A DNA stretch of 64,000 nucleotides from Nanobdellota archaeon (GTDB taxonomy: Archaea; Nanobdellota; Nanobdellia; Woesearchaeales; GW2011-AR4): positions 64,339 through 128,338 of the forward strand of contig JBBSWH010000005.1 in assembly GCA_038046385.1 (NCBI GenBank), read 5' to 3'. Each line of letters begins with the position of its first letter. The first letter of the stretch is position 1. This document shows, piece by piece, positions 5,715 to 47,279 of this stretch. The position numbers and the translations under genes are program-made. The notes below the pieces were generated by a model that was not told the DNA's origin, searched no databases, and worked only from the letters and a program-made list of their open reading frames with translations.

Positions 5715-6026
5715 TTAATTCAGCCTTCTTCCGCACCTTGAGCAGAAATTGTCATGCGCTCTTGCAGAGTTGCTGCAGTAAGGGCACCTTTTCATGCTTT
5801 GATTATTTTGATGGGTTGGTTGCCTGTGCATGGTTTGAGGAGTTTGATGGTGCAACGGCTTTTCTTCCTTTTTTCCGGAAGAAAAAATCATTTTGATTAT
5901 CCCGATAAGAATGAACAGTATTCCGACATAAAAAAAGAATAAAAATTTATCATAGTTTATTTTCCATGACACAGAAGACAGGAGGAAGCCTGCAAGCATG
6001 TAGACAATCCAATGTATTTTTGCCAT
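5715..6026 (-). CDS. Membrane protein with C-terminal zinc ribbon
   Basis: Two predicted TM helices followed by CPYC..CSRCG. Confidence 0.5.
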   Translation of the reverse strand: MAKIHWIVYMLAGFLLSSVSWKINYDKFLFFFYVGILFILIGIIKMIFSSGKKEEKPLHHQTPQTMHRQPTHQNNQSMKRCPYCSNSARAHDNFCSRCGRRLN

Positions 6027-6034
6027 TTATTCCC

Positions 6035-7315
6035 TTATTTCTCTCTTTTTCCTATAACTTTCTTTCCAAGATATTTCTGCAGAACCTTTGGCACTTTTAT
6101 CGTGCCGTCTTTCTGCTGGTGATTTTCAATAATTGCTCGCAAAGCTCTGCTTGTTGCAATTGCGGTGCTGTTTAAAGTGTGGACATATTCTTTTTCGTTG
6201 TCTTTTCTGTATTTTACATTTAATCTTGTTGCCTGATATGCTGTGCAGTTTGAGCATGAAACAACTTCCCTGTACAAATTCTCGCGGGGGAACCATGCCT
6301 CAATGTCATATTTCTTTGCAGCAACAATTCCGATGTCACCTGTGCATACATTAACAACTCTGTAAGGGATTTCAAGTTTTTGGAATATCTCTTCTGCATT
6401 TGCAAGCAACTCTTCGTGGAATTTCCATGAATCTTCAGGCTTGCAAAAGATAAACTGCTCAATCTTGTTGAAGTGATGAACTCTGAAAATTCCTTTTGTG
6501 TCAATGCTGTGGCTTCCCAATTCTTTTCTGAAGCAAGGGCTGCAGCCGGCAAATTTCAAAGGCAGCTTTTCAGGATCGACAACTTCGTTCATCAGCATGG
6601 CTGCAATCGGATGCTCTGATGTTGCAATCAGCATCAAATCTTCCCCTTCAATCTTGTACATCATTGTCTCAAAATCTTTCAAATCTGTGACGCCTTCATA
6701 CGGCTTGCGCCGCATCATCAAAGGAGGCTGAATCATTGTGTAATCTTTTTCTGAAAGCAGGTCTATTGCAAAATTTGTCAGCGCAAGCTCAAGCCTTGCG
6801 ATGTCTCCAATAAGATAATAAAAACCATGGCCGGAAACTTCAGCAGCTTTTTCAAAATTCGCCAGTCCCAACTCCTGCAAAAGTTCTCCATGAGACTTCA
6901 GTTCAAAGTCAAACTTAGGCTTTTCTCCGTGAGTCTTGACAACTTTGTTGTCTTCTGAGTCTTTTCCAGTTGGAACGCTGTCATGCAGAATGTTTGGAAG
7001 GCGCATCATGTAATATTCTACTTTTGTTTTTAATTTTTCAAGCTGCTCATCGCTCTGCTTTACTTTTTCCGGAAGCTCTTTTGCTTCCTGCACTTTTTCC
7101 TTGAAGTCCTTGCCTTGTTTTCTAAGAACATTGATTTCTTCTGTTATCTCGTTTCTTCTCTGCCTTAGCTTCTGGTTTTCCTGCAGCAATTTTCTGTAGT
7201 CAACGTCTGATTTTAACAAATCATCCAGCCATGCAAGCTTTTCCTTGTCGTTTCTCTTTTGAAGATCTTTCCTTACAATTTCAGGATTTTCGCGTATGAA
7301 TCTTATGTCTAACAT
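6035..7315 (-). CDS. serS: Seryl-tRNA synthetase
   Basis: N-terminal coiled-coil arm and class II core (FRVHHFNKIEQF, TAIATSRAL). Confidence 0.95.
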   Translation of the reverse strand: MLDIRFIRENPEIVRKDLQKRNDKEKLAWLDDLLKSDVDYRKLLQENQKLRQRRNEITEEINVLRKQGKDFKEKVQEAKELPEKVKQSDEQLEKLKTKVEYYMMRLPNILHDSVPTGKDSEDNKVVKTHGEKPKFDFELKSHGELLQELGLANFEKAAEVSGHGFYYLIGDIARLELALTNFAIDLLSEKDYTMIQPPLMMRRKPYEGVTDLKDFETMMYKIEGEDLMLIATSEHPIAAMLMNEVVDPEKLPLKFAGCSPCFRKELGSHSIDTKGIFRVHHFNKIEQFIFCKPEDSWKFHEELLANAEEIFQKLEIPYRVVNVCTGDIGIVAAKKYDIEAWFPRENLYREVVSCSNCTAYQATRLNVKYRKDNEKEYVHTLNSTAIATSRALRAIIENHQQKDGTIKVPKVLQKYLGKKVIGKREK

Positions 7316-7356
7316 AGAACTAAATTAATTTAGAATGTATAAAAATGTTTCTTATA

Positions 7357-9132
7357 TTACTCAGCGGGATTTTCTTCCAATAAAGGACTATAAGCCTGTT
7401 CAAAGTACTGCCTAACCATTCTGTGGCTGTTAAACCATGGGGCATTATGCGCAGCAGCCGCTCTCATGACTCTCGCCCATGCTCTTTTATCATTTTTAAA
7501 AAGAGGGACTATTACGTGTTCCAGTTTTCCATATAAATCAGATGTGTCAATCTGTCTGTCTTCATCTCTTTTTTTTCTTCCGTCAGGCCCCAGTAATTCA
7601 ACAAAATCCTGTCTGCCCGGCAGCCTTCCTATAGCCCAGCCGGTTACTCCTTCTATTAACCCTTTAGGCAATGTATATCCAGATACAGGTTCCTGCGGCA
7701 CAGTCCAGCCGTCAAGTATAGAGAGTTGCGGAACAAGATTTATCGCAGCTTTCATTCCGCTGTTGCCGGACGCCTCTAAAAGCCTCTCCGGAGTGTTGAG
7801 CCAGACATCAGCACCCCTTACTAAATATTTTGCAACCTGCATATCGTAATCTTCCACAAACCAGATAGGAACTTTTCCTTTTAATTCCTTCATGTAATTG
7901 AATATTTGTTGTATAACCTCTTTTCCTGGATTGTCATTTGGATGGGCTTTGCCGGAAAATACAAACTGCACATCTGTTCCTAATTTAATTAATCTATCCA
8001 AGTCTTCAAAAATAAGGGTAGCTTGTTTGTATGTTGCAAATCTTCTTGCAAAGCCTATTGTTAATTTATTTGAATCGTAGTCTGCATTTCCCCTTATGCT
8101 CTGACTATTATTTAGAAAATGCCCTAGATTTTCTCTGGATAATCTGTGAGCATTCAAAACCTGATCTTCAGTTAACTCCAGTATTCTTTCAAGCCTTTCA
8201 GGATGCAGTCTCCATTCTCTGTTTGTCAAGCTATCATACAGTTTTTGAACCTGGGAAGAAGCCCATGTTGCAAGATGAACCCCGTTGTCTATGCTATACA
8301 ATTTGCCCATATTCGGAAAATCAGAAAACATATATCTTGATACTTCAGCATGCAATGGAGAAACTCCAAAAGCTTGTGAAGCAAGTGCCATAGCAAGTCT
8401 TGCCATGTTGAGATCGCTTGTTCCGGTCAATGAATTCATGTAATCTGAAGAAGGCATTCCTTCCCCCAATACTTGTTCAGCTAATTGCCTTGAGAATATG
8501 TCTAAACCTGCAGGTACTGGAGTGTGAGTTGTGAACACAAAATGCTTCCGTGCTTCTTCAATACTTCCATATTTTGCTATAAGCTCAAGCCCAGCTAAAG
8601 CGGCATGGCCTTCATTTGCATGATGCACTTTTATATCTTGATAGCCTAAGGCATCCAGTGCCCTTACACCGCCCCTGCCTAAAACTTGTTCTTGGGTTAA
8701 GCGCCAGTATAGGTGTTCTGATGGATACAAAACGTCGCAAATATCATTATCCCAATTACCTTCATTATTGCCGTTGGTATCAATGTCTATTAACGGAACA
8801 ACACTGCCTGTAACTCCCACGATCGGAAGTACCCATGCGCTCAATTTTACATCTCTTCCCTCAATTGGGACTGAAGTTATCTTTGGATGATAAGTCATCC
8901 TTCCGGTTGGGTCAAATCCCCCGTATTCCTCTGTCTGCCACCCGTCAGCTGATAATTTCTGATGAAAATTGCCCCTATTATAAAGAAGTCCAACACAGGC
9001 TACCGGATAACCCAAATCTGCAAATGATTTAGCACCATCACCTGCGAGAATGCCTAGCCCTCCTCCAAACGGAAGGCCTTCCTGTCCAAATTCTGCAGAA
9101 TAATATGCTACCCTAGCATCTTTTTGTAACAA
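7357..9132 (-). CDS. glgP: Alpha-glucan (glycogen/maltodextrin) phosphorylase, GT35 short type
   Basis: YYSAEFG..GGLGILAGD N-terminus and PLP-lysine context EASGNSGMKAA. Confidence 0.85.
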   Translation of the reverse strand: MLQKDARVAYYSAEFGQEGLPFGGGLGILAGDGAKSFADLGYPVACVGLLYNRGNFHQKLSADGWQTEEYGGFDPTGRMTYHPKITSVPIEGRDVKLSAWVLPIVGVTGSVVPLIDIDTNGNNEGNWDNDICDVLYPSEHLYWRLTQEQVLGRGGVRALDALGYQDIKVHHANEGHAALAGLELIAKYGSIEEARKHFVFTTHTPVPAGLDIFSRQLAEQVLGEGMPSSDYMNSLTGTSDLNMARLAMALASQAFGVSPLHAEVSRYMFSDFPNMGKLYSIDNGVHLATWASSQVQKLYDSLTNREWRLHPERLERILELTEDQVLNAHRLSRENLGHFLNNSQSIRGNADYDSNKLTIGFARRFATYKQATLIFEDLDRLIKLGTDVQFVFSGKAHPNDNPGKEVIQQIFNYMKELKGKVPIWFVEDYDMQVAKYLVRGADVWLNTPERLLEASGNSGMKAAINLVPQLSILDGWTVPQEPVSGYTLPKGLIEGVTGWAIGRLPGRQDFVELLGPDGRKKRDEDRQIDTSDLYGKLEHVIVPLFKNDKRAWARVMRAAAAHNAPWFNSHRMVRQYFEQAYSPLLEENPAE

Positions 9133-14670: not shown

Positions 14671-15072
14671 ATGGGAGTAGCAACAGAGCTGGAAAAGGGC
14701 AAGTATTTTCTTCACAACAACGAGCCTATGAGGGTTACAAGAAAAGAGGTTGTTGCTGTCGGAACGCATTCACACACCAAGCTCAAGATTTTCTATCAGG
14801 GAGTTGAAGGCAGGGGAGAAAAAACAATCATACTGGGGCATACTGATAAAGTAGATATTTTGGACATAACAAGAAAACAGGGACAAGTGATATCAAAAAA
14901 CAACGACAAGGTGCAGATAATGGATCTTGTTTCGTATGAAGTGATGGAAGCAAAAGCAATTCCTGAAATAATGGATGATTTCAAAGAGGGATTGATTGTG
15001 ACTTTTATAAATTTCAACGGAGACTGCAGGATTGTGGATATAAGGGGAAGCCAGAAAGAAGAACATTCATGA
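14671..15072 (+). CDS. aIF5A-like translation factor (divergent hypusine loop)
   Basis: 133 aa from the internal ATG, because the track ORF start overlaps the tRNA. By-eye alignment to archaeal aIF5A runs along its full length; the loop reads AVGTHSHTKLK versus the usual SPGKHGSAKAR. Confidence 0.7.
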   Translation: MGVATELEKGKYFLHNNEPMRVTRKEVVAVGTHSHTKLKIFYQGVEGRGEKTIILGHTDKVDILDITRKQGQVISKNNDKVQIMDLVSYEVMEAKAIPEIMDDFKEGLIVTFINFNGDCRIVDIRGSQKEEHS

Positions 15073-15560
15073 AAAAAACTAATTCTAAATATATTGTTGT
15101 GAAAAAGTCAAAAATCCACAACAACGGGATTTTTGCAAAGAAAGATGTGCCAAAAGGAATTAAAGTACTGCAATATGTTGGAGAAAAAATAGACAAGACA
15201 GAAGGGGCAAAAAGAGAGGTACTGCAGGATAAGCTTGCAGCAAAAAACAAAAAATACGGAGTTGTTTATGTCTTTGAACTCGATAAGAAATGGGACATTG
15301 ACGGGAGCTTTGAGTACAACACTGCAAAATACATAAACCATTCGTGCAATCCAAACTGCAGGATAAGCATAAAAAACGGGGAGATATGGATAGTGTCAAA
15401 GAGAAGGATAAAAAAAGGGGAAGAGATAACTTATAATTATGGCTATGACTTCGAAGGAGGAGACCATCATGAATGCAAGTGCGGATGCGGCAATTGCGTC
15501 GGGTACATACTTGATGAGGATCACTGGCCAAAGCTGAAAAGGGCTATTAAGGGGCAATAG
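15069..15560 (+). CDS. SET-domain protein lysine methyltransferase
   Basis: NHSCNPNC, ELTYNY-like EITYNYGYD, post-SET CKCGCGNC. ATGA overlap with the upstream stop. Confidence 0.85.
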   Translation: MKKTNSKYIVVKKSKIHNNGIFAKKDVPKGIKVLQYVGEKIDKTEGAKREVLQDKLAAKNKKYGVVYVFELDKKWDIDGSFEYNTAKYINHSCNPNCRISIKNGEIWIVSKRRIKKGEEITYNYGYDFEGGDHHECKCGCGNCVGYILDEDHWPKLKRAIKGQ

Positions 15561-17362: not shown

Positions 17363-18220
17363 ATGATGACAGATAGTATAGGAAAAAATGTCAACCTCAT
17401 AGGATGGATGGACAATTTTTATAGTACTGCTCCCTGTGAAGTCAGACTGGAAGGGCTTGAGAGCAGGATAATAAAAGCGTCAAATCCAAGCGGGCTGCTT
17501 GATTTGTTTAACCCTAATGCAGAAAGGATTGCGACACTGGGAGAAATAGCCACTGCAAGAGTAATTGCACTTGATTATTTATTTGAAATGGTTCCTAATT
17601 TAAGCGATATGTTTGCAATAAGTCATATCTGCAAACTCGATAGTGTGATTGACATTGACCAAGCAATGCTTGGAAGAATCCTGAAAGCATTTGTAAGATA
17701 TCCTGAAATATTCGGAATATGGCAGGAAAGATTGACTGCATCAACGCATATGGTAAGGGGGATTGATGACAATCAAGATAAAATTTTCTTTGCCGATGGA
17801 AATAAATTTGATAGAACTATTGACTACAAAAAAGCATTGGAAGGAGAATTATCAGATGGTGGAATACGCTATGGCGATGAAACTCTAAGTAATATGGCTG
17901 ATAAGTCTTACTCCTCTTTATCACTTGCGTCTTATTTGGATGCAAAAGGCGGAAAATTCAATGGCTCAGAATTATTTAATCATCCAATATTCAAGGCAGC
18001 TTTGAATGATGATGCGCTTAGAAGCCAGTATGTATTGGCACTGCAGTTGCTTGATTTTGTAAGCATTCATGATGCAGGAAGATATGCACTTTGGCGTCCT
18101 GGTGGAATGAAACCAGGATTTGGGAGGCAGATATCTCTTGGATATAAAGGCGAGACATTCTATCCGCCGAATAATGACACAGTAGGACATGCTGCACTAG
18201 TATTACCAATAAAATCCTGA
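17363..18220 (+). CDS. Hypothetical protein
   Basis: 285-aa ORF, divergent from the Lrp gene; no motif recognised. Confidence 0.5.
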   Translation: MMTDSIGKNVNLIGWMDNFYSTAPCEVRLEGLESRIIKASNPSGLLDLFNPNAERIATLGEIATARVIALDYLFEMVPNLSDMFAISHICKLDSVIDIDQAMLGRILKAFVRYPEIFGIWQERLTASTHMVRGIDDNQDKIFFADGNKFDRTIDYKKALEGELSDGGIRYGDETLSNMADKSYSSLSLASYLDAKGGKFNGSELFNHPIFKAALNDDALRSQYVLALQLLDFVSIHDAGRYALWRPGGMKPGFGRQISLGYKGETFYPPNNDTVGHAALVLPIKS

Positions 18221-18552: not shown

Positions 18553-19227
18553 ATGATAATCTGCGGTATTGATGAAGCTGGTCGCGGTCCATTAATCGGC
18601 CCTATGGTGATGGCCGGCGTTCTGATAGATGAAAAAGACGAGGCTAAATTCAAGGCTATCGGTGTAAAAGATTCTAAACTGCTAACCCCTTTCCAAAGAA
18701 AAGACCTATTTGACAAAATAAAATCCATTTCTAAAAAATACAAGATAATAATTGTGCAGCCTGATGAAATAGATGATGCTGTTTTTGGAAAAGGTGGATT
18801 AAACCTAAACTGGCTTGAAGCAAACACTTCTGTAAAAATACTAAATGAACTAAATCCTGAAAAGGCAATAGTTGATGCTCCGAGCCCGAACATAAAAAAA
18901 TACACAGAATACATAAGAGAAAAGCTTGACAACAAAAAGGTGAAGCTTGTTTTGGAACATAAGGCGGATGTTAATTATCCTGTTGTCGGCGCAGCTTCGA
19001 TTCTTGCAAAAGTCACAAGGGACAATGAAATCGAGAAAATAAAAAAGCAGATTGGAATTGACTTTGGAAGCGGGTACATGTCTGATCCAAAAACGTCTGA
19101 GTTCTTGAAAAAACACCACAATAAATTTCCCGAGATTTTCAGGAAGAGCTGGGCGCCCTATCAGAAGATTGCAGACAAAAAGATGCAGAAAAATTTATCT
19201 GATTTCTCCAAATTCATTAAAGAGTAA
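18553..19227 (+). CDS. rnhB: Ribonuclease HII
   Basis: GIDEAGRGPLIGPMV, DSKLL and ASILAKVTRD motifs. Confidence 0.9.
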   Translation: MIICGIDEAGRGPLIGPMVMAGVLIDEKDEAKFKAIGVKDSKLLTPFQRKDLFDKIKSISKKYKIIIVQPDEIDDAVFGKGGLNLNWLEANTSVKILNELNPEKAIVDAPSPNIKKYTEYIREKLDNKKVKLVLEHKADVNYPVVGAASILAKVTRDNEIEKIKKQIGIDFGSGYMSDPKTSEFLKKHHNKFPEIFRKSWAPYQKIADKKMQKNLSDFSKFIKE

Positions 19228-19263
19228 GAAAGATTTAAATAATATTAAAAATAGAATTTTTTA

Positions 19264-19815
19264 ATGCACGACATAGTAAAAAGGGATATCCTAAGCGTAC
19301 TCACCAGATTATCTGAGATAATAAAGATAAAAAATGATACTGATTTTCTTGAATTAAAAGAGTTGAGCAACCACGTCATACACAATGCGAGCGTTTTCCA
19401 GGATGAGGATTCTGTTTCTGTAGCAGTTTTGATATATGCGCTGTCAAAGATAATAGAGAGGCAGCAGAACTTTGACTATGCGAGGGTCTTTGGCATGGTG
19501 GAGTCCTGCATTGCTAATTTATTAAACGGCAATGACGAAGGATTCAGGAAGTCAATAAAAGAGATATTCAGCTTCATAAGAACTGTTGATAACAAGCTCA
19601 GGATGTACATCAACGAAGTCATCAACCAGGCGCAGATAAAGAAAGGCTGTAAATTGTGCGAGCACGGAATATCTGTCGCGAGAGCTGCTGAAGTGCTTGG
19701 AATATCGCAATGGGAATTGATGCATTACCTTGGAAAGACTATGATTATGGACCAGATCAGCGAGCCTGTTAATGTATCCCAAAGGTTAAAATTTGCAAGA
19801 GGGCTGTTTTCATGA
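19264..19815 (+). CDS. Helical protein with C-terminal UPF0175-like HTH
   Basis: C-terminal ISVARAAEVLGISQWELMHYLGK. ATGA overlap with the next gene. Confidence 0.5.
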   Translation: MHDIVKRDILSVLTRLSEIIKIKNDTDFLELKELSNHVIHNASVFQDEDSVSVAVLIYALSKIIERQQNFDYARVFGMVESCIANLLNGNDEGFRKSIKEIFSFIRTVDNKLRMYINEVINQAQIKKGCKLCEHGISVARAAEVLGISQWELMHYLGKTMIMDQISEPVNVSQRLKFARGLFS

Positions 19816-20501
19816 AATCAATAATTTTTGATGCCGGCCCGATAATAAGCCTTGCAACAAACAACCTGTTGTGGATACTGGACCCACTAAAGAAAAAATT
19901 CAATGGAAAATTCTACATAACAGACGCTGTAAAAAGAGAGCTTGTTGACAAGCCGTTTGAAACAAAAAAATTCAAGTTTGAAGCTATACAGGTTGAGAAG
20001 CTTATAGAAGAAGGCGTTATTGATGTCATAGACAGCGGAATGGTAAGGCAGCAAACTCCGCTTTTGCTCGACAAGGCAAATCAAACTTTCAAGGCATACA
20101 AAAATTATATGAAAATAGTGCATTATGCTGAAATGTCTGTTATTGCTGCAGCCATTGAGATAAAGGCAGACGCCATTGTGATAGACGAGAAAACAACAAG
20201 ATTTCTTATAGAAGACCCTGAAAACCTAGTAGAGATATTTAAAAAAAACCTGCACACAAGGATAGACGTAAACGAAAGTAATTTAAAAGAATTCAGAGCA
20301 TCTGCAAAAGGGGTAAAAACCATAAGATCTGTGGAGCTTGTGGCAATTGCATTTGAGCACTCGATACTTGACACTTATATGACAAAGCTGCCAAATGCCA
20401 GAGCGCAATTGCTGGAAAGTGTCTTGTGGGGTGTAAAGCTCAACGGGTGCGCTGTTTCAAAAGACGAGATTAGCCAGATAATGAAGCTGGAGTTAAAATG
20501 A
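19812..20501 (+). CDS. PIN-like (COG2405/DUF3368-like) protein, extended
   Basis: N-terminal IIFDAGPIISLA, later AEMSVIAAA and IVIDEKTTR acidic positions. ATGA overlap with the next gene. Confidence 0.55.
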   Translation: MKSIIFDAGPIISLATNNLLWILDPLKKKFNGKFYITDAVKRELVDKPFETKKFKFEAIQVEKLIEEGVIDVIDSGMVRQQTPLLLDKANQTFKAYKNYMKIVHYAEMSVIAAAIEIKADAIVIDEKTTRFLIEDPENLVEIFKKNLHTRIDVNESNLKEFRASAKGVKTIRSVELVAIAFEHSILDTYMTKLPNARAQLLESVLWGVKLNGCAVSKDEISQIMKLELK

Positions 20502-21589
20502 TAAAAAAAGAGGAAGATTTTCAGATTGATTTTGTAGTGCCGCAGGTGCCTGCATCTACTGCTATTCCTAATTTCTGCGTTGCGATGCTGAAGAACGGCA
20601 GCACTGTAAAAGTCGAAGGGACCGTTGAAGAATTGATTCCTACAATAAATGACTCTGATTTCTGCTGGGTTAACATACAAGTTAGCAATCTGAAAGAAGG
20701 CAGCAAGAAAGTATGCTCTTTGCTTGGATTCAAAACATCAACAATTGATGAGCTGATGTCCCAAAGGTTTTCCGGATATGACGACAATGTCACAGAGCTT
20801 GGATTGCTGCTGCCGGCAGTGAAGGTGACTGAGCTTGAAGTTGAGATAAACCAGCTGATTATCCTGATAAAAAATAACATGATAATCACTATCCACGGCG
20901 AGCACGTAACAAGACTTTTAAAATTCGCAAGATATGCTGTAACTTTCTTCAAAAAAGTTCCAAAAAACCTTGAAGCTACTGACAAGATATCGCTTGTCCT
21001 GATAAGAATACTTGACGAGAACAATGAAAGAAATTTTGACGGGATAAGGTCTATACAGGAGCAGGGAGAGCTGATAAGCAAATACCTTATTGAAACAACC
21101 GGCTTCAGGAAGGAGCTTGGAAGCGATATATACAAGATGAAGCATGCCTTGATTTCATATCTTGAGGCATTGTGGGCATCGCTTGATGTCATACACTATC
21201 TTAGATACGGAGATGCAGAACTTATAACTGATGATTCTGTGATATTGCAAAAAGTCGGCATGCTTAGCACAGACTTGACAAGGCAGATTTCCATCAGTGA
21301 GCAGATGTCAACGGTGCTTGCATCCGGCCTTGAAGTGATGCAAAGCATTTACAACAACCAGCTGACTATGCTCAACAACAGATTTTCCATGCTTGCAGTA
21401 TGGATGGCATTGGTCGGAACTGCATTCTTAGTTCCAAATACCATAGCAACTGTTTTTGGAACGCCGATTGCAGAGCATCTGGACTGGCACACCCAATTAT
21501 GGATTATAATTACTTCAACTCTGGCGGCAGTGCTTATTGTATACTGGCTTATGAAAAGAAAGGGAATATTCCCAAAAATGGAGCAATAA
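20498..21589 (+). CDS. CorA-like membrane protein with non-canonical pore motif
   Basis: 363 aa with a soluble N-domain and two C-terminal TM helices. FLVPNTIATVFGTPIAE occupies the place of the ..YGMNF.. signature. Confidence 0.65.
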   Translation: MIKKEEDFQIDFVVPQVPASTAIPNFCVAMLKNGSTVKVEGTVEELIPTINDSDFCWVNIQVSNLKEGSKKVCSLLGFKTSTIDELMSQRFSGYDDNVTELGLLLPAVKVTELEVEINQLIILIKNNMIITIHGEHVTRLLKFARYAVTFFKKVPKNLEATDKISLVLIRILDENNERNFDGIRSIQEQGELISKYLIETTGFRKELGSDIYKMKHALISYLEALWASLDVIHYLRYGDAELITDDSVILQKVGMLSTDLTRQISISEQMSTVLASGLEVMQSIYNNQLTMLNNRFSMLAVWMALVGTAFLVPNTIATVFGTPIAEHLDWHTQLWIIITSTLAAVLIVYWLMKRKGIFPKMEQ

Positions 21590-21782
21590 TAATATAAATC
21601 AGCAGGATAACTCAAATAAAATGGAACAAAATAATGAGAATGGAATGTCAGAATTGAAGATTGCTGTAACCTGCTTTATTGCCATTGTAATAATAATAAT
21701 TGGGCTTGCATTAATCATCAAATAGGGATTTCTTCAGCATGGTTCAGTTAATTATATAAATAACAATAATCAAAGCTAGCAC

Positions 21783-46928: not shown

Positions 46929-47279
46929 TTGCAGGGTTAGTACTTAGCTTCGGCGCATGAAAAGGCTCGAAAGGGCTTATTCTGCTGAGGAAAGTCCGCC
47001 CACCATAAAAGGCCACTCGCACAAGCGAGTTTTGGAGACAGAAGGCAACCACTCAGAAACGAGACCGCTGCATCTAAGGGTGAAGCTCGCGAAGGCTCCT
47101 GTGAAGGAGCTGAGAACAGCTGACGTTTATGCAGAATGGATGAAACGGTGAGTCCTGGCCGGTGCAAGTCCGCGAACAAGCAATTGTTCCAGTACGCTTA
47201 GTTTAATGCTAAGACAGGCTATCGCATTATCAATAATGCACAAGGGCCTGACAAAAGGCGGCTTATTCTGGCCCTGCAA
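46929..47279 (+). ncRNA. rnpB: RNase P RNA
   Basis: CR-I GAGGAAAGTCCGCCC (46987-47001), CR-V ACAAAAGGCGGCTTA (47251-47265), P1 pairing TTGCAGGG/CCCTGCAA at the ends. Confidence 0.85.

Follow-up and report, generated by a model that had tools for sequence, protein, structure and literature searches.

We examined three overlapping genes, here called P1, P2 and P3, in a 64,000-nucleotide (nt) stretch of the Nanobdellota contig JBBSWH010000005.1; "the window" refers to that whole stretch. All three genes lie on the forward strand, and encode in order a helical-bundle protein that carries a helix-turn-helix (HTH) segment, a PIN-fold protein, and a CorA-superfamily membrane protein that lacks the GMN motif. 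The trio is probably a clade-specific operon that joins two functionally independent, conserved and uncharacterized modules, the P1–P2 pair and P3, and not a dedicated three-part defense system. The initial annotation of this DNA had proposed a three-component stress or defense module with a CorA-like membrane effector, and had named independent occurrence of the CorA-like gene in relatives as an observation that would refute it. The gene does occur independently of the pair, and the pair also occurs without the gene. The modules therefore separate in both directions, no defense context accompanies them, and the proposal is not supported. What is new in the trio is how parts of known kinds are arranged, and we find no support for a new system.

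The distribution of P3 was surveyed by a scan of the GTDB species genomes, and gene adjacency was scored within ~6 kb of P3. P3-subfamily genes are present in 434 archaeal GTDB species genomes from many phyla, the relatives spanning Woesearchaeota, Altiarchaeota, Iainarchaeota, Micrarchaeota, Thermoplasmatota, Methanobacteriota, Methanoperedens and Methanomassiliicoccales. Eighty loci were retrieved with P3, comprising 32 species genomes of a close clade, in which P3 is at least 64% identical to that of the window, and the 48 most similar loci outside it. In the close clade, 28 loci carry P1–P2 immediately upstream of P3, two were unscorable, and two have P3 without the pair; rnhB, which encodes RNase HII, lies upstream of P1 in 23 of the 32. 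The 48 P3 proteins from outside the clade are 45–54% identical to that of the window and come from Altiarchaeota, Iainarchaeota, Micrarchaeota, Thermoplasmatota, Methanobacteriota, Hydrothermarchaeota, Methanoperedens and Methanomassiliicoccales. Neither P1 nor P2 was found near P3 in any of the 40 testable loci among them (40/40), nor does P3 have a cross-phylum conserved neighbor in these out-of-clade loci.

The P1–P2 pair is similarly found on its own. A metagenome scan queried with five fused P1–P2 sequences gave 80 loci, of which 17 have P3 directly downstream, 38 have no P3 in at least 1.2 kb downstream, and 24 were unscorable; P3 is thus absent downstream of the pair in 38 of 55 testable loci. 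The survey of gene neighborhoods for co-occurrence of the trio, which had been recommended as a check on the three-component proposal, accordingly counts against it from either side. Separation is also seen within a single syntenic block. In most of the clade the block reads rnhB–P1–P2–P3–DUF87(HerA-like)–Metallophos, but one locus (L028) has rnhB–P3–DUF87–Metallophos with the pair missing, and two others (L106 and L144) have rnhB–P1–P2–DUF87–Metallophos with P3 missing. The window itself has no DUF87 or Metallophos genes, and P3 is followed there by genes for a nitroreductase and FtsZ. Adjacency of all three genes appears, from these loci, to be limited to one Woesearchaeota-type lineage, and the closest protein relatives of the window carry the labels Woesearchaeota or Nanoarchaeota.

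Where the three genes do occur together, they are co-inherited and evolve at a housekeeping rate. Among 40 loci with all three, mean pairwise identity is 73% for P1, 73% for P2 and 77% for P3, as compared to 72% for RNase HII from the same loci, and the distance matrices correlate with r of 0.61–0.76. Each of P1, P2 and P3 is present as a single copy within the window, and base composition at the locus is unremarkable (G+C ~38% in the window).

The open reading frames (ORFs) and the ATGA overlaps at both junctions, as described in the initial annotation, were confirmed and are conserved in related loci. Among 96 such junctions of P1 with P2, 62 show the 4-nt overlap, and the P2/P3 junction reads ATGA in 41 of the 45 loci that have all three genes. 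Given this recurrence in related loci, the overlaps are not chance. Since the crude gene caller often extends P3 or P2 to upstream ATGs, giving apparent overlaps of -76 and -106, the ATGA start was confirmed by direct inspection of the junctions. Upstream, in the 36-nt spacer between rnhB and P1, lies a TATA-like box (Table 1) that is a family-wide feature: a match to TTTAWATA with at most one mismatch starts at -33 to -29 of the P1 ATG in 72 of 87 P1 loci. The position of this box, ~30 nt before the start codon, suggests that P1 heads its own, probably leaderless, transcript, and the box in the window is predicted to act as promoter for such a message, leaderless or nearly so. A scan for sigma-70 promoters and terminators yielded no more matches than the mean of shuffled sequence; the sigma-70 model is inapplicable to an archaeon.

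The ATGA couplings do not demonstrate that the three proteins act as one system. In the window's clade they could nevertheless form a real three-component system, in which the pair gates a membrane effector, or in which the nuclease is tethered at the membrane under the cytoplasmic domain of the channel; we consider this unlikely. Conserved ATGA coupling at both junctions in ~41–45 loci, the one promoter upstream of P1, and the correlated divergence of P1, P2 and P3 are all consistent with such a system. However, correlated divergence is already predicted by simple co-inheritance, each module stands without the other in most sampled lineages, even inside the same syntenic block, and conservation of the cytoplasmic domain of P3 is no lower in phyla that show no nearby pair than in the window's clade. 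There is also a precedent, in that type III CRISPR signaling employs CorA-family membrane effectors that are activated by SAM-AMP, with a soluble partner nuclease that is encoded adjacently and sometimes fused (PMC10600005). The trio resembles these in placing a divergent CorA-family membrane protein beside a gene for a putative soluble nuclease, but P3 lacks a cas context and is a protein of ~360 amino acids (aa) with an N-domain of canonical size.

Searches for a defense context gave little that would favor a three-component system. Neither in the window nor in the 80 loci retrieved with P3 was a cas10, NrN, DEDD or SAM-lyase gene or a CRISPR array found close to P3. No CRISPR-like array was found anywhere in the 64-kb window, and there were no defense matches among the flanking genes, the sole cas match being the generic winged-HTH similarity of an Lrp/AsnC regulator. 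The recommended PADLOC check (PADLOC-DB 2.0) gave no confident match to a described defense system. It returned models of the candidate system PDC-S70 only, which matched P1 weakly at 1e-3 and P2 at 5e-8 over ~30 residues; these two matches are the remaining points on the side of a three-component system. The PADLOC model of the CRISPR-type CorA effector reached only E 0.014 and 12.3 bits with P3, and did so over the transmembrane (TM) region alone. A defense or CRISPR link of the trio was rejected on the lack of an array, the lack of a flanking defense match, and this weak and TM-restricted match.

A further conjecture, which we think improbable, is that a pentamer of the GMN-less CorA-fold protein has, in the Woesearchaeal clade, taken on the HTH–PIN complex at its cytoplasmic funnel to give a membrane-coupled nuclease/channel device. 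If this were true, the nuclease would be controlled by an ion flux or ligand that the CorA-like protein senses, or the reverse, and the arrangement would correspond to the CRISPR CorA–NrN pairing but be independent of cas.

Several observations weigh against the reading of the trio as two independent modules in one operon. The P2–P3 ATGA is kept in 41 of 45 loci despite varying flanking residues, such that co-expression seems to be under selection in this clade, and such selection is also expected from a true functional partnership. Adjacency was scored within ~6 kb, so the pair and P3 could still co-occur unlinked in other lineages. Distant carriers of P1–P2 are known from metagenome contigs without taxonomy. 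The link of P2 to DUF3368 is inconsistent between precomputed annotation and direct hmmscan. Lastly, near-identical DNA to the locus was found only in groundwater metagenomes, all of them DNA, with no RNA run holding the locus.

Of the two modules, the P1–P2 pair had been said to look like an enlarged UPF0175/DUF3368 pair, a description that holds in part: P2 has a PIN fold and P1 a weak UPF0175-like HTH, but P1 stays below the Pfam threshold for UPF0175, and annotation sources conflict on DUF3368 for P2. The IIFDAGPIISLA peptide quoted in the initial annotation is present in P2. The AlphaFold (AF2) model of P2 has a mean pLDDT confidence of 85.8, and its top Foldseek matches in the PDB are all PIN/VapC structures (1w8i, 8wmm_G, 5x3t_B and 4chg_A) with probability 1.0 and E ~5e-3. 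TM-scores against these structures, normalized to the target, are 0.5–0.7, at a sequence identity of only 10–16%. The PIN-fold core occupies residues 1–134 and is followed by a conserved helical C-terminal extension, residues 135–229, that ends in the LLESVLWGVKLNGCAVS motif (consensus LLxxxLWGxKLxGC). Asp7, Glu107 and Asp125-Glu126 are invariant, including in fused relatives that are only 31–44% identical, and no fourth acidic PIN residue was identified in P2. By its modeled fold and conserved acidic residues, P2 belongs with the PIN domain-like superfamily, and the conserved acidic triad argues that it would be a catalytically competent nuclease. Searching the PDB sequences with the P2 profile returned nothing even at E 10. 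Precomputed annotation lists PF11848 (DUF3368) for all 120 P2 homologs and in the contig tables, yet direct hmmscan of P2 and 42 orthologs against current Pfam gave no match to PF11848; the conflict looks like a discrepancy between model versions.

P1 contains the AAEVLGISQWELMHYLGK peptide quoted earlier. AF2 models residues 1–122 as an N-terminal six-helix bundle (pLDDT ~90 for residues 1–120), after which comes a highly conserved UPF0175-like HTH segment at residues ~126–160. AlphaFold, which had been suggested as a check, was thus informative for the PIN fold of P2 but less so for P1, where the HTH part has a low pLDDT of 45–60 and the bundle has no match in the PDB: a PDB fold search with the P1 model gave designed helical bundles only, at E>0.2, and the P1 profile gave only noise against PDB sequences. 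The resemblance to UPF0175 (PF03683) is local, at aa 134–161, and real, though below the gathering score, with E 0.007 and 16.4 bits against a cut-off of 27.9 bits. E<0.01 for this family is reached by 8 of 43 P1 orthologs and 2 of 19 fused relatives.

In many lineages the two proteins are also made as one polypeptide. P1 has 628 homologs, the top 120 of which are 67–93% identical, and an exhaustive profile search with P2 gave 573 clusters at 50% identity, of which 253 reach E<=1e-30 and almost all are full length. In-frame P1–P2 fusions of 400–430 aa, with varying linkers, account for ~24 of the top 150 representative clusters (P0363, P0369, P0378, P0388 and others), and single fused ORFs are present in the DNA of at least four metagenome loci (L089, L091, L094 and L095). 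As evidence of the Rosetta-stone kind, these fusions indicate that P1 and P2 function as a single unit.

UPF0175/COG2886 proteins have been placed exclusively beside COG2405 PIN proteins, with which they are predicted to form toxin–antitoxin (TA) pairs (PMC5499597, PMC2701414). P1–P2 might accordingly be a classical type II TA addiction module, a UPF0175 antitoxin with a COG2405 PIN toxin, inserted between rnhB and a bystander CorA-like gene, but we find this doubtful. As in UPF0175 (COG2886)–COG2405/DUF3368 pairs, an HTH gene that resembles UPF0175 lies upstream of a PIN gene with a 4-nt overlap, and the first three acidic PIN positions of P2 are conserved; the antitoxin-first bicistron with overlapping genes, found in 62 of 96 junctions, is an organization expected of type II TA modules. 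The locus that lacks the pair at its exact position (L028) is compatible with either insertion or loss. In contrast to those pairs, P1 adds a 120-aa helical bundle and P2 a 95-aa helical domain, so that each far exceeds its classical counterpart in size, and the additional domains are strongly conserved. The pair is often fused in frame, slow-evolving and chromosomal, resides in housekeeping contexts, falls below the Pfam threshold for UPF0175, and in direct hmmscan does not reach that for DUF3368. Type II modules are expected to be mobile, patchy and fast-evolving, and often multicopy or carried on mobile elements, whereas P1–P2 has one copy in the window, diverges to the same degree as RNase HII, and has stable synteny. 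VapBC complexes (5x3t, 4chg, 3zvk) are the best structural matches of the P2 model, at target-normalized TM-scores of 0.56–0.68, but the partner of P2 is an HTH-type protein and not an AbrB, RHH or Phd protein. No relatives of P2 were found in plasmid and phage collections, which hold few DPANN elements, and P2 has no PHROG match; a mobile-element origin of the pair was set aside on the same searches in those collections.

The second module, P3, has CorA architecture without GMN, as the initial annotation had stated. It matches the Pfam CorA model (PF01544) over positions 2–292 of 292 with E 5.7e-24 and 85.4 bits, against a cut-off of 27 bits, and its nearest solved structure is Methanocaldococcus jannaschii CorA (MjCorA; 4cy4/4ev6), with E 1e-6 over aligned residues 30–356. 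By alignment to MjCorA, P3 has the two TM helices and long stalk helix that mark the CorA fold. A GxN, usually GMN, at the outer end of TM1 defines the 2-TM-GxN family of Mg2+/Co2+/Zn2+ channels (CorA, ZntB, Mrs2 and Alr1) and its Mg2+ selectivity. HMMER places the P3 sequence VFGTPIAE, which holds the FGTPIAE segment, on IYGMNFSY of MjCorA, such that GTP stands in the GMN position. Neither GMN nor any GxN was found at the filter position in 121 close sequences (P3 of the window and 120 relatives), nor in 80 further relatives taken from the genome scan; within the subfamily this position varies (GTP, GTQ, GTA, SIG, GIP, SNP, GNP). The TM1 stretch directly ahead of it, G-T-A-x-L-V-P-N-T-[IL]-A-T, is by contrast nearly invariant.

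Conservation in this subfamily is found elsewhere in the protein. Trp302, Gly307, Pro313, Asn314, Thr315, Ala317 and Thr318 are invariant in 121 orthologs and conserved across phyla. Among 81 sequences, conservation is highest in the stalk helix and TM1, with a mean column identity of 0.75–0.76, and lowest in TM2 and the loop, at 0.49 and 0.45; very conserved stalk segments include DENNERNF and LASGLEV[LM]Q. Like 2-TM-GxN Mg2+ channels such as MjCorA and Thermotoga maritima CorA, P3 has a soluble N-domain, a long stalk helix and two C-terminal TMs, and keeps the TM1 proline and the basic tail after TM2. Unlike these channels, it lacks GMN/GxN, has the TM1 signature VPNT[IL]AT, and has a short and unconserved periplasmic loop.

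Because the defining GxN is missing, P3 ought not to be classified among the 2-TM-GxN Mg2+ channels. The sequence instead points to a pentameric channel or transporter whose selectivity would be unlike that of canonical Mg2+ CorA. Partly independent of the question of the operon is the possibility that, as annotated, P3 serves its host as a regular Mg2+/Co2+ CorA channel whose loop has drifted, which seems improbable: the full-length Pfam match, the closeness to MjCorA, the retained basic tail and the database names fit it, but GxN is missing in every one of ~200 subfamily members examined and the position varies, conservation has shifted to the stalk helix and the Asn/Thr-rich TM1, and the NCBIfam corA equivalog model TIGR00383 gives P3 55.5 bits against a cut-off of 200.75 bits.

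Returning to the trio as an operon of two independent modules, we envisage the following mechanism. P1, P2 and P3 would be expressed as one transcription unit under their own TATA-type promoter, with P1 and P2 made in a fixed ratio from one leaderless mRNA. P1 and P2 would then form a stable, permanent HTH–PIN nuclease complex, which in some lineages is a single polypeptide, and the P1 HTH may bind the nucleic-acid substrate or the operon's own promoter. The complex would perform a conserved cellular job in nucleic-acid processing, as opposed to addiction or abortive infection; it probably descended from UPF0175/COG2405-type antitoxin–toxin stock and lost its mobile addiction behavior. P3 would assemble as a CorA-like pentamer in which the outer filter is replaced, while the inner TM1 Asn/Thr ring (VPNT[IL]AT) and the stalk helix are conserved; because of the replaced filter and conserved ring, its selectivity should differ from that of Mg2+ CorA. 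In the window's clade P3 would be merely the third cistron, with the ATGA couplings ensuring co-expression in a compact genome.

On this account the trio itself reflects operon compaction in a small DPANN-type genome, which is ordinary and of modest interest; better leads are offered by the GMN-less CorA subfamily and by the family of fused HTH–PIN proteins. A literature search found nothing specific on either, and both appear uncharacterized. Relatives of P3 are named "magnesium transporter CorA" in public databases, a label that, on the proteins of several hundred archaeal species, is probably a systematic misannotation. The subfamily may represent an uncharacterized channel type that is open to ordinary transport assays. 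The enlarged HTH–PIN pair looks like a TA pair yet behaves as a core gene, with slow divergence, stable synteny and frequent fusion, and is therefore a candidate for a TA-type architecture in a constitutive cellular role in DPANN archaea.

Table 1. Positions of the trio, its sequence elements and selected other features of the window.
Feature	Position (nt)	Strand	Basis and remarks
P1	19264-19815	+	ORF, 183 aa
P1 UPF0175-like HTH segment	19639-19743	+	Residues ~126-160
P1 stop/P2 start overlap, ATGA	19812-19815	+	Sequence read
P2	19812-20501	+	ORF, 229 aa
P2 PIN-fold core	19812-20213	+	Residues 1-134
P2 stop/P3 start overlap, ATGA	20498-20501	+	Sequence read
P3	20498-21589	+	ORF, 363 aa; CorA-superfamily membrane protein of a GMN-less archaeal subfamily
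P3 TM1, aa 296-320	21383-21457	+	Hydrophobic segment aligned to MjCorA TM1; signature G-T-A-x-L-V-P-N-T-[IL]-A-T
P3 Gly321-Thr322-Pro323 codons	21458-21466	+	Canonical GMN position by MjCorA alignment
P3 TM2, aa 334-352, then basic KRK tail	21497-21553	+	Hydrophobic segment aligned to MjCorA TM2
Archaeal TATA-like box TTTAAATA	19234-19241	+	In the 36-nt rnhB–P1 spacer, 23-30 nt before the P1 ATG; predicted promoter
rnhB (RNase HII gene)	18553-19227	+	Pfam RNase_HII, E 8.8e-46; context only, outside the operon
SET-domain protein	15069-15560	+	E 3.6e-23
285-aa ORF	17363-18220	+	Between the Lrp/AsnC regulator and rnhB
34-aa ORF	21621-21725	+	Directly 3' of P3
Archaeal RNase P RNA	46963-47275		

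The window is archaeal and contains an archaeal RNase P RNA. The trio has housekeeping genes for neighbors, with no sign of a defense island; they include those for a SET-domain protein, a pseudouridine synthase, an Lrp/AsnC regulator, RNase HII, a nitroreductase, FtsZ and a TP_methylase-family protein, which we take to be a diphthine-synthase-like enzyme. The SET-domain gene lies a few genes upstream of the trio, and the 285-aa ORF in front of rnhB has no Pfam or PADLOC match. The 34-aa ORF that follows P3 would encode a single hydrophobic helix, MEQNNENGMSELKIAVTCFIAIVIIIIGLALIIK; it was rejected as part of a conserved unit, being kept in the nearest relative (L141) only.

Recurrent neighbors of P1–P2 in the 80 metagenome loci are a HerA-like ATPase (23/80) and RNase HII (16/80), as well as MoxR/DUF58. 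In many loci (L104, L106, L120-L122, L126, L144, L148, L150, L160, L161 and most clade loci), some of them with differing upstream contexts, the gene directly downstream of P1–P2 or of P3 encodes a HerA-like DUF87 ATPase, and a gene for a 405-aa Metallophos protein (Mre11-like) often comes next. This adjacency may reflect simple synteny, or the ATPase and the PIN nuclease may be genuinely linked. An ArvA/OapA-like GTPase, OapB (PF09846) and OapC (PF09845) occur near P1–P2 in 12/80, 10/80 and 8/80 loci, respectively. This Arv/Oap cluster lies upstream of P1 in nine loci (L092, L093, L119, L120, L126, L137, L139, L162 and L164) and downstream in another (L090), and in Haloferax the ArvABC/OapABC set has been connected both with origins of replication and with the formation of vesicles (PMC10927574).

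Three further observations concern the P3 subfamily and its labels. A Methanomassiliicoccales chromosome (L079, OY968769.1) carries two P3-subfamily genes in tandem at ~5989-8180, indicating paralogous expansion in some lineages. A P3-subfamily gene whose product is 46% identical to P3 of the window is found on an 89-kb contig labeled as the bacterium Candidatus Kuenenia stuttgartiensis (L069, DYIT01000005.1), as the result of either a mis-binned archaeal contig or horizontal transfer. Finally, the Woesearchaeota-type block, 64–80% identical to the window, is present on several contigs titled "uncultured Methanosarcinales archaeon" (L006, L008, L014, L017-L020, L027, L029 and L034-L036), a label that looks wrong.

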